64,000 nucleotides of DNA from a virus. Lineage: Duplodnaviria; Heunggongvirae; Uroviricota; Caudoviricetes. The notes under the pieces were generated by a model. That model was not told the origin of the DNA and did not search any database. It saw only the letters and a program-made list of their open reading frames with translations. The stretch spans positions 64,001 to 128,000 of the IMG/VR virus record IMGVR_UViG_3300021387_000529; one strand, written 5' to 3'. A program made the position numbers and the translations under genes. Below are positions 6,583 through 50,184 of this stretch, piece by piece (positions within the stretch are counted from its first letter, which is position 1; the number at the start of each line of letters is the position of its first letter).

Positions 6583-6714
6583 ATGACAATTGAAGAAGAA
6601 TACAATTCCTTTGTTGAAGAGCAGTATGCTGGAAAGTCTTTAGAAGAGCGCCAAAAATTAGGGCAGTTTTATACTCTTATTTTTAATAACTTACTAATTT
6701 TATATGAATTATAG
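6583..6714 (+). pseudogene. Truncated 5' remnant of the methyltransferase N-terminal half, interrupted by the HNH insertion
   Basis: MTIEEEYNSFVEEQYAGKSLEERQKLGQFYT matches the start of 7326-7796 (EYENWKKEQYADKTIKERQDLGAYFT); similarity stops at 6675. Confidence 0.8.
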
Positions 6715-7342
6715 AAAACTTTATTTAAGAATTATTAAAAATGCAAAGTATGAAGAGTCCTTAAACAAAAGGAACAGAAAAAACGGAATTTATTATGAGT
6801 CACATCATATATTGCCAAAGTCTATGTTTCCACTTTGGAAACATAGAAATAGTAATATTGTCTTACTTACTGCACGAGAGCATTTCTTTTGTCATCAGCT
6901 TCTTGTAAAAATTTATGACAACAAAGAAATGAATAATGCTTTATGGTTTATGACAATTTCAAAAAATAAACGTTTAGTTATTTCTTCAAAGGAATACGAA
7001 AAGATTAGAAAGAGCGTATGTTTAAGAGGAAAAAATAATGGATTTTTTGGAAAACACCATACTGAAGAAACATTAAGAAAAAATGCAGAATGGCATCATT
7101 TACATCCAAACTCAAAAGACACTATGGATAAAATCCATAAGAAAAATATTGGCAAGCATAGAACACTTGAACAACGAGAAAGACAGTCTAAAGCTGCCTT
7201 AAAAAGAGATAATACTAAAAATAATGAAAGAATTAAAAAAGTTAAGTTTCTTTATGAAAAATATAAAAATACTGGAGGCAAGCTCGTATGGAACGAGTTC
7301 CAAAAACATTATAAGGAGTTTGAGAATGGTACTTTCAGATGA
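6704..7342 (+). mobile_element. Free-standing MobE-like HNH homing endonuclease with NUMOD3-type repeats
   Basis: MNYRK.Y..II, YESHHILPKS, N.VLLTAREHFFCHQLL.KIY; N.FFGKHHTEET and GKHRTLEQR. Confidence 0.88.
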
Positions 7343-47782: not shown

Positions 47783-48226
47783 TTGAAGATGGTATCTTAC
47801 AAGATTTTTATTTTTATCACAATGATTTTTATGCATATTCTTGAGGATTTCCATCTTCAAGGCTGCTTGGCGAATTTGAAGCAGAAAGATTGGTGGGAGA
47901 AAAATGTCGCTAACTTAAAAGACACAATTTATGCTCGTGACTATGCAGTTGCGCTAATTACCCACTCAATTGAAAATTCTATTTTTGTCATAATGCCAAT
48001 TGTCATTGATAATTTAATTTACATGTGCAAAAATGGAATAGACACAAATGCTTGGAAATTGTGGGCAATCTTTATTTTGCTCAATACAGCTTTTCATACA
48101 TTTGTGGACAGCGCAAAATGCAATAAGAAAATAATCAATCTGGTTGTTGACCAAGTGCTTCATTTTGCTATGCTTATCATGATATTTGTTGTAAGTTGGA
48201 AGTATCTCGGCCTCTGGTTAATATAG
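47783..48226 (+). CDS. DUF3307-like membrane protein
   Basis: H...DF.LQG..A..K, H..VD..K, DQ.LH. Confidence 0.7.
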   Translation: MKMVSYKIFIFITMIFMHILEDFHLQGCLANLKQKDWWEKNVANLKDTIYARDYAVALITHSIENSIFVIMPIVIDNLIYMCKNGIDTNAWKLWAIFILLNTAFHTFVDSAKCNKKIINLVVDQVLHFAMLIMIFVVSWKYLGLWLI

Positions 48227-48243
48227 TCTATAACTAATTTTTT

Positions 48244-48306
48244 AGAGGACAGCAAGATTCCACCTTGTTGAGGGAAGTTTTCATCGAGCTTCCCTCTAAC
48301 TCTTTT
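48244..48306 (+). ncRNA. predicted two-loop small RNA complementary to the HNH mRNA leader
   Basis: Starts 6 nt after ACTAA (48233-48237); two hairpins plus a U-tract; loops complementary to 48329-48334 and 48356-48363. Confidence 0.6.
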
Positions 48307-48358
48307 ATACTAATTATTTTATAGTGCCGTGGAAAGCACTTAAAAGGAGAAAATATCG

Positions 48359-49159
48359 ATGAATTACAGACACATCTATATGTGTATAATTACACATGCA
48401 AAGACTTCTAATCGTAAACGTGGTGATGGGAATTATTATGAAAAACATCACATCCTTCCAAGAAGTTTATTTCCAAATTGGATAACAAAAGAATCAAATA
48501 CAGTCTTATTAACAGCTAGAGAGCATTTCTTCTGCCATCAACTTTTAACTAAAATTTATCCTTCATTTGAAATGGAAAAGGCTCTAAGCATATTTTGTAA
48601 ATTTAAACAAGATAAAAGAGCTTTGACTTCAAGACAATATGAAATTTGTAGAAAAGCTGCACATAGAGCAAATTTATTATGGTGGTCTGATGACTCAAAC
48701 AGAGAACGAATGAGAAAAAATTTACATGAAGCTCTGAAAACTAGAAAAATTGTTTTTAGTGAAAAAACCAAGCAACAAATGAGTGAAAGAAGCTCCAAGA
48801 GTCGTTGGTATAATAATGGAGAACGAGAAACTTTTTCAGTTAAATGTCCTGATGGGTTTATTCCAGGTAGATTAAAACTAACGAAAGAACAAAAACAGCA
48901 TAAATTAGAAGCTCTAAGAAAAAACAGAGCAAATAGAACTGAAGAAGAAAAACAGTTGGAATTTGAAAGACGATCTTTAGCTAATAAAAAGCGGCCTAAA
49001 AAACAAAAGAAAAATATTAATATAAGAAAATATACACTTGACGAATGGAATAATATACAGAAAAAGGCTAAGCTAACAGCTTTTGAAACTGGAAAGTCTT
49101 ATTCAGAGTGTATTAATTTAATTAAAAAGGAGGTATGCCCATGTCGAAAATATGTATAA
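48359..49159 (+). mobile_element. Free-standing MobE-like HNH homing endonuclease
   Basis: MNYRH.Y, YEKHHILPRS, N.VLLTAREHFFCHQLL.KIY; WYNNG...G.I.GR module. Confidence 0.88.
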
Positions 49160-50184
49160 TTCCTGATATTCATGGTTCTCATGAGTGGGAAAAAGCTAAA
49201 GATTTAAAAGCTGACTATTATGTATTTCTCGGCGATCTTTGACTCGTTGATGCATGGAACAATAAATGGCCAGACCAAGGTGAAAACATTGCTGCTTTTG
49301 CTGCTTGGGTTCGGGAAGACCCTGAACATCGTATTTGGCTTTTAGGAAATCATGACTGGAGCTATCTTTCACAATCAAGAAATGGCGGAAATTGCAGTGG
49401 CCATCAAAATGGAAAAGCTGGCGAAATCCGTTCTCTTTTACTTGCAAATAAAGACTTGATTAAATTGGCTTGGGAATGTGATGGTTGGGTATTTTCACAT
49501 GCTGGTTTTACAAATCATGCTATTGGTTACATGAAGAAAGTTATGCACAATCTTTTTGAAGTGCATCCAAAAGCTGAGAAAACCAATTTTGAAAGTCAAG
49601 AAGAATATAAAGCTTATATGGACGAATTGTATAAAGACTTCAAAGAATGGGATGAGTCTGAATACAGTATTGGCCTATTGAATAAAACTTTTGCAGAAAG
49701 AATGGCTGAATATCCAGAAAATGCACATAAGTGGCTCGCTTTTGATGAGAAACTTGATTGGGACGGATGCTTTTCTGGAAGTGGTGATGAAGTGTCACAG
49801 TTCTGTTTATGGGTTCGTCCCCATTCATTACTTGAAGATGCAGCTTATCCAAAACAGGTAGTTGGACATACTGAATATTGTTTCTGGAATAAACCTGAAG
49901 TTTTGACAAAAGGTGAGAATGTAGCTATTCTTATGGATAGCCGCGATCATCACATCATGATGTTTGATACACAAGACGTGCCAAAAGGCAGAACTGAACT
50001 TGACTTCAATCGTGCTATTAAACAACTTGATAAACAGGTTTGTAATTTGAAGTCTGTTTTTGGTATGTTCACAATGGGTGATGACACACTTTCAGACGAA
50101 GAAAAACATGCTAAAGTTTTGGAAGAGTTTCCAGAAAATGGTGAGTTTATCTGGAAAAGTTTTTTCAAAAGTGAGGAATTGTAA
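49141..50184 (+). pseudogene. calcineurin-like metallophosphoesterase with an in-frame TGA at codon 34
   Basis: PDIHG, FLGDL*LVD, LLGNHD, FSHAG, LWVRP, VVGHT all in one frame; AGGAGG SD; TGA at 49240-49242. Confidence 0.8.

Follow-up and report, generated by a model that had tools for sequence, protein, structure and literature searches.

A covarying small RNA with a three-way junction accompanies unrelated phage homing nucleases and is predicted to clamp the start of their mRNAs through two loops

The DNA analysed here (the window) is a 64,000-nucleotide stretch of a complete phage genome of 300,878 bases (301 kb), which carries 42 tRNA genes and a tmRNA. On its + strand, the gene of a DUF3307 membrane protein (47783..48226; PF11750) is the upstream host gene of a mobile cassette of approximate extent 48223..49140, made of a small RNA, a leader, a nuclease gene and the ribosome-binding site (RBS) of the next gene, a metallophosphoesterase. 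The nuclease (48359..49159, +) is a protein of 266 aa with a MobE-like N-terminal nuclease domain. It matched the homing endonuclease family phrog_655 (E 5e-33), T4 mobE was among its tblastn matches, and residues H30, H31, N47, H56 and H60 were invariant among the aligned relatives; no solved structure matched it. The HNH motif, the lack of a flanking intron and the empty allele found in relatives identify it as a free-standing HNH homing endonuclease. In this empty allele, L160, the DUF3307 gene is joined directly to an intact metallophosphoesterase gene, and the match to the window stops near 48222. Since L160 is devoid of the RNA, the RNA belongs to the cassette and travels with the nuclease.

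The RNA is predicted to span 48244..48306 (+), about 63 nt, with a start deduced from a promoter-like word. The initial annotation had described two hairpins at this place, followed by a U-tract. Both hairpins are present, but they are enclosed by a closing helix that had been overlooked, which turns the fold into a three-way junction; the U-tract is there too, yet it is only 4 U long (48303-48306). The parts follow each other as the 4-bp closing helix P1 (48244-48247/48300-48303), the junction bases GA, hairpin P2 (48250-48270, with loop 1, ATTCCAC, at 48257-48263), hairpin P3 (48271-48295, with loop 2 at 48278-48288) joined to P2 without a linker, the junction bases CUAA and the short U-tract. 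The fold of 48244-48308 beat 200 of 200 shuffles (z -3.4). In the predicted free RNA, the mean unpaired probability is 0.99 for loop 1 versus 0.65 for the 8-nt word of loop 2, the ends of which are predicted to be weakly paired. A single copy of the RNA was found in its own genome of 300,878 bases, and no second one.

The leader of the nuclease mRNA contains a hairpin (48323..48340, +) with a 5-bp stem and an 8-nt loop, referred to below as the docking hairpin. Its loop holds the first target, GTGGAA (48329-48334), which is complementary to TTCCAC in loop 1 (48258-48263). The second target, TCGATGAA (48356..48363), runs from -3 to +5 of the ATG at 48359 and is complementary to TTCATCGA in loop 2 (48280-48287). 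The Shine-Dalgarno sequence AGGAG (48345..48349, +) lies outside the docking hairpin, the stem of which stops at 48340. Both loop/target matches, the hairpins of the RNA and of the leader, and two ACTAA words (48233-48237 and 48309-48313) were all found exactly where the initial annotation had placed them. Among 1078 candidate starts in the genome, the cognate one had the top score. Matches of 6 nt and 8 nt at one locus are weak evidence when taken singly, and proof beyond chance comes from covariation across relatives.

Relatives were gathered through look-ups of homologous proteins, DNA patterns in which both RNA loops were left open and a covariance model. They yielded 27 distinct RNA/target pairs, along with two variants of divergent arrangement and two orphan RNAs; L020, L021, L030, L154 and most matches of one pattern search were discarded on fold or model score. 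Conservation and covariation in homologs had been set beforehand as the test that could overturn the reading, and the outcome was clearly favourable, as both the helices and the loop/target pairs covary. All three helices of the RNA do so. On the model alignment, 97% of cells are paired, both sides have changed in 13 of the 19 pairs and 114 cells are compensated versus 29 in shuffles, a covariation count that leans favourable because this alignment was fitted to the covariance model. An independent subset aligned with plain MAFFT has 98.8% of cells pairing and both-side changes in 13 of 19 pairs, and the covariance model matches window 48242-48309 at 52 bits with the window absent from its training set. 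The nearest relative, L001, is preceded by a different gene; compensatory changes have occurred in each of its two hairpins, and its loop 2 and start region have changed in step. L014 is about 90% identical to the window, yet the words differ in both loops. The stem of the docking hairpin covaries too (GTGC/GCAC, GTGG/CCAC, GTGA/TCAC, GAGG/CCTC). A nearly invariant G-U at the third pair of P2 fixes the strand of the RNA, and about 14 junction bases (GGACAG, UUG, CUAAC) show little or no variation. The matches from an exact 16-mer search were for the most part due to chance, and blastn against 50,697 phage records gave chance matches only. No riboswitch, ribozyme, HEARO, sRNA or other family reached its gathering threshold in an Rfam 15 scan of the window, and scans of seven related loci returned nothing over the RNA element. 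Collectively, these data indicate that the RNA module is real, strongly covarying and apparently undescribed, its family being apparently absent from Rfam. The scan also gave a 19-bit match to SAM-V over the leader (threshold 41), which rests on the leader stem and the Shine-Dalgarno sequence and was rejected.

Across the 27 pairs, loop 1 carries 13 different hexamers (among them TTCCAC, TTCCGC, TCCTAC, TCTCAC, TACCAC, TGTCAC, TCCCCA, TAACGG and TTGCCG), each complementary to the loop of its own docking hairpin over 6-7 bp, as in L044 (TGTCAC/GTGACA). In 21 of the 27 pairs, loop 2 is complementary to the region of its own start codon over 6-11 bases. In five (L036, L037, L073, L077, L159) it matches the Shine-Dalgarno region, with a match of only 5-6 nt in L073, L077 and L159; in L024 alone the loop-2 match is lost. 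The mean run of complementarity to the cognate partner was 6.5 for loop 1 (4.4 for non-cognate partners) and 7.4 nt for loop 2 (4.6). For either loop, permuting the partners never gave a score as high as the cognate one (0 of 100000 with the 27 pairs, 0 of 200000 with the first 19), counts that are not strict probabilities because the loci are related to one another. With so many different words, cognate matching is not adequately explained by shared ancestry and, as the search patterns left both RNA loops unspecified, loop/target covariation was not selected for. The docking hairpin stands at -39 to -44 where loop 2 targets the Shine-Dalgarno sequence versus -27 to -30 otherwise, an upstream shift seen in four of the five loci concerned. 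That it shifts along with the loop-2 target fits both loops docking at once. No base of the target sequences is invariant across loci, which is more in keeping with pairing than with recognition by a protein or catalysis. Covariation bears out the predicted pairing of the RNA with the initiation region of its own element's nuclease mRNA, and we propose that the two loop words act as an address by which different cassettes would be largely insulated from each other.

The pairings are kept independently of the position and strand of the RNA. In 25 of the 27 pairs, it lies upstream of its nuclease gene on the same strand (tandem order). In L043 and L044, it is encoded on the strand opposite the nuclease mRNA, overlapping the 3' end of the gene, behind its own ACTAA; these two loci keep both pairings with different words in each, and loop 2 of L043 uses a G-U at a GTG start. 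Because a transcript of L043 or L044 cannot carry both parts, the pairing must be between molecules. The initial annotation had offered a separately transcribed RNA acting in trans or the same pairing in cis on a read-through transcript. The flipped loci favour the separate RNA; pairing in cis is possible in the tandem loci, the window included, and both modes may operate.

The two divergent variants, L099 (1399-1466, -) and L143 (3720-3783, +), encode the fold immediately ahead of the nuclease gene and on the other strand; their loop 1 matches the Shine-Dalgarno region and their loop 2 is closed down. Their assignment is less certain, and in them alone the RNA may overlap the nuclease 5' UTR. 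The two orphans, L052 (1501-1572, -) and L054 (1163-1228, -), have an intact fold and distinct loop words without an adjacent leader or nuclease; no target was found for L052 in the searched part of its assembly, or for L054 among the collected loci. They could be leftovers, or they could repress cassettes that are distant or incoming. An assembly labelled uncultured Treponema holds seven RNA copies on five contigs, three of which share many proteins with the window phage. Five of these seven copies have targets, which they address with four loop-1 words and five loop-2 words. The binning of contigs related to the window phage (L044-L046, G001) in this assembly is a hint at the host.

The initial annotation had tied the RNA to the neighbouring HNH endonuclease. 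This tie stands, but its scope was too narrow, several unrelated nuclease families being served: the module stands before genes for HNH, GIY-YIG and DUF7487/restriction-like nucleases, with partners of 210-340 aa. Recognition of the RNA by the nuclease itself is unlikely, since the partner proteins are unrelated. Only 4 of 80 HNH relatives carry the RNA, which is therefore dispensable for the HNH family. The window encodes an HNH paralog (6704-7342; 51% identical over 105 aa) that has an ACTAA and a leaderless start, and neither the RNA nor a docking hairpin was found there. In L159 (1202-1414 and 1501-1561), the RNA sits within a tRNA array, directly behind a match to a group I intron (49 bits), and the nuclease cassette is possibly inside or beside a tRNA intron.

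The word ACTAA(T/A)T stands ahead of both the RNA (promoter-like motif 1, 48233..48239, +) and the leader (promoter-like motif 2, 48309..48315, +). It occurs 107 times in the genome, and 47 of these occurrences sit 9-17 nt before a gene start with a mode at +11, versus 2 of 279, 1 of 330 and 0 of 232 for three non-overlapping control words. Many genes are headed by it without room for a Shine-Dalgarno sequence. The word also precedes leaders with a Shine-Dalgarno sequence, as well as the RNA, so a promoter fits better than a translation signal, and we infer that ACTAA(T/A)T acts as a promoter. With the +11 spacing, the RNA would begin with the first base of P1 (48244) and the mRNA at 48320 (predicted range 48320-48323), three bases ahead of the docking hairpin. 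Genes headed by the word include those of very large and holin-like proteins, which suggests a late promoter class; T4 capsid, portal and sigma profiles had no match in the genome. A promoter-like word was found upstream of the RNA in 19 of the 27 pairs and was absent in the other eight. Every tandem locus has one between the RNA and the leader when a loose pattern is used. L016 has GTTAAT at both promoter positions, and L073 and L077 have TATAAATA at the position of motif 2. In L050 (1501-1653, -) and L054, the RNA directly follows a tRNA gene, with no ACTAA in between, and may be released by tRNA processing. The terminator is weak across the pairs (4-bp stem, 3-7 U) and absent in L073 and L077.

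The antisense clamp put forward in the initial annotation is supported by the conservation of the RNA in homologs and by loop/target covariation, and we consider it likely that the RNA is a portable two-point clamp that would block initiation of nuclease translation. A phage promoter would produce the RNA of about 63 nt, and a second promoter would produce a nuclease mRNA opening with the docking hairpin. P2 and P3, joined without a linker, probably stack end to end and would expose one loop at each end. Loop 1 would kiss the docking loop (6-7 bp) and loop 2 would cover 7-11 bases at the AUG, or at the Shine-Dalgarno sequence in some loci, so that the 30S subunit and the initiator tRNA would be excluded. 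Trans pairing is implied by the flipped loci, and the RNA would block 30S binding in trans; in tandem loci, transcripts reading through from the upstream operon may also form the same clamp in cis, which would give a T4-like early block. Its purpose would be to limit the dose of a toxic nuclease. A reasonable guess, by analogy with IS10, is that a promoter class shared by repressor and target creates a dose threshold, which would become tighter as the genome copy number rises. We also lean, with only modest conviction, towards a broader reading, that of a new family of phage small RNAs. The rigid junction clamp of about 63 nt, with its two programmable loops and docking leader, would move between unrelated homing nucleases and repress them in trans, and its words would diversify as an addressing code, similarly to plasmid incompatibility groups, letting cassettes in the same or in co-infecting phages escape mutual silencing.

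Pairing in cis could instead be the sole mode here: early read-through would fold into a double pseudoknot hiding the AUG, and the inner promoter would later make a transcript without this fold. In agreement with this scheme, 25 of the 27 pairs are in tandem, the promoter-like word in tandem loci is always between fold and target, the terminator is weak, some copies have no promoter word of their own, and T4 provides a precedent with a less elaborate structure (PMC2988022); the flanking genes are adjacent in the empty allele, so read-through is likely. We nevertheless regard it as unlikely, as it is inapplicable to L043 and L044 with their opposite-strand RNAs, and as P1 opens precisely at the start predicted from its own promoter and closes at the U-tract.

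The invariance of the junction, with about 14 near-invariant bases, goes beyond what a passive scaffold might need and could mean that the docked RNA serves to bring in a protein (RNase or chaperone) or is itself a catalytic core that cuts the nuclease mRNA. A rigid structural motif would also have an invariant junction, however, no Rfam ribozyme or riboswitch matched, and the targets lack an invariant base for a cut site, making this reading quite improbable. An activating role, in which the RNA would open or stabilise the mRNA for translation, is barely credible. The Shine-Dalgarno sequence of the window is predicted to be partly paired with the coding sequence (unpaired probability 0.24), but this pairing is not conserved among 20 folded leaders, and it is the AUG or the Shine-Dalgarno sequence itself that loop 2 would pair with. 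Activation by unmasking was rejected since these leaders have no conserved self-masking of the RBS to relieve.

The antisense clamp was compared with known systems. IS10 RNA-OUT/RNA-IN and IS200 art200 rely on an antisense RNA that blocks 30S binding and acts in trans (PMC4513863). Similarly to these, the small RNA described here belongs to a mobile element and would pair, starting at a loop, with the initiation region of the mRNA of the element's own DNA-cutting enzyme. The IS10 and IS200 RNAs are transcribed opposite their target and fully complementary to it over 35-90 nt (PMC4513863), whereas most of the window RNA is encoded outside its target, to which it is complementary in just two words of 6-11 nt; it is built on a three-way junction and accompanies enzymes that are unrelated to each other. 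The opposite-strand origin with long perfect complementarity that defines cis-antisense RNAs was not found, the 25 tandem RNAs being same-strand and upstream, and those of L043 and L044 overlapping the 3' end of the gene.

T4-type genes (I-TevI, I-TevII, I-TevIII, segB and Aeh1 mobE) have RBS-sequestering hairpins (PMC2988022; PMC2677866). The kind of gene is the same and control would likewise be exerted at translation initiation; the T4-type late promoter lies between the repressing sequence and the RBS, a position held here by the promoter-like word, for which the genes that it heads suggest late timing. Unlike with the single cis hairpin of the T4 type, repression here would depend on a separate folded RNA, which is able to sit on the other strand. 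No Shine-Dalgarno sequence enclosed in one local hairpin stem and no conserved masking were found, and the leader hairpin leaves the Shine-Dalgarno sequence free, as noted for seg43(25).

RNAIII of Staphylococcus aureus is a long RNA. [quoted passage not shown] Trans-acting translational repression through two separate loops would be common to both. RNAIII acts as a global regulator of many targets, and its C-rich loops are fixed, whereas the window RNA is about 63 nt long, dedicated to its cassette and variable in its loop words, and its second target is an unstructured start region, unlike in rot. Type I toxin-antitoxin systems combine a small, usually membrane-active toxic peptide with an unstable antisense RNA; the partner here is a nuclease of 210-340 aa. 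In cyanophage S-PM2, the antisense RNA CfrI is located between psbA and F-CphI, and the role proposed for it concerns psbA (review PMC12197685). It is also a phage antisense RNA beside a homing endonuclease gene, and no two-loop scaffold or start-site pairing is described for it in that review. The GA opposite CUAA with two inserted helices is reminiscent of the UA_handle three-way junction and UAA/GA motifs (PMC2615604).

Among the literature covered, the described controls of phage homing endonucleases are cis hairpins and transcriptional autorepression. No description of two-loop RNA control of homing nucleases was found in the literature searched, and the structured-RNA catalogue PMC10690425 could still list it. 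If true, the proposed mechanism, readable from sequence, would add a dedicated trans-acting small RNA to these controls, and would open to testing how the dose of toxic nucleases is set in phages and whether selfish elements silence one another or escape such silencing. The roughly 25 natural loop/leader pairs would also be a resource for a very small reprogrammable translational repressor.

The metallophosphoesterase gene downstream of the cassette (49141..50184, +) has a 6-nt insertion that places an in-frame TGA (49240-49242) in its GDxVD motif, and is the probable target gene of the nuclease. Seven loci in which a metallophosphoesterase follows the HNH gene (window, L014, L015, L016, L036, L037, L038) are interrupted at this motif by insertions of 1, 2, 6 or 7 bases, in the order codon, stop and matching codon just downstream (CTT TGA CTC at window 49237-49245; GTT TGA A GTT; GTG TAG; TTT TGA). 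The gene is intact in three nuclease-free alleles, L160-L162. The HNH nuclease may cleave the nuclease-free allele and promote homing, and the alteration of the neighbouring gene at one motif in seven nuclease-bearing loci suggests that the interruption marks the cut site. The interruption is a candidate for immunity to the nuclease, the protein being possibly rescued by stop-hop, slippage or frameshift, a putative recoding that we liken to T4 gene 60 and mobA. Downstream of the interruption the frame is intact (48 synonymous and 17 non-synonymous changes), which is also expected from homing, and +1 or +2 insertions yield such stops automatically. In L037 (1083-1215) and L038 (about 2290-2385), a 5' fragment of the metallophosphoesterase is also present upstream of the cassette, which supplies a replacement 5' end downstream.

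Two further observations were made on the genome. ARAGORN identified, in the tRNA array, a tRNA with the anticodon TTA, ochre suppressor-like, at G000 143689-143761. A repeat of about 35 nt ending in TTATTTAAACAGGTAA was found in at least six intergenic regions, each time before an ACTAA, near G000 239610 and 270245 (+) and near 283400, 201060, 165700 and 16750 (-).
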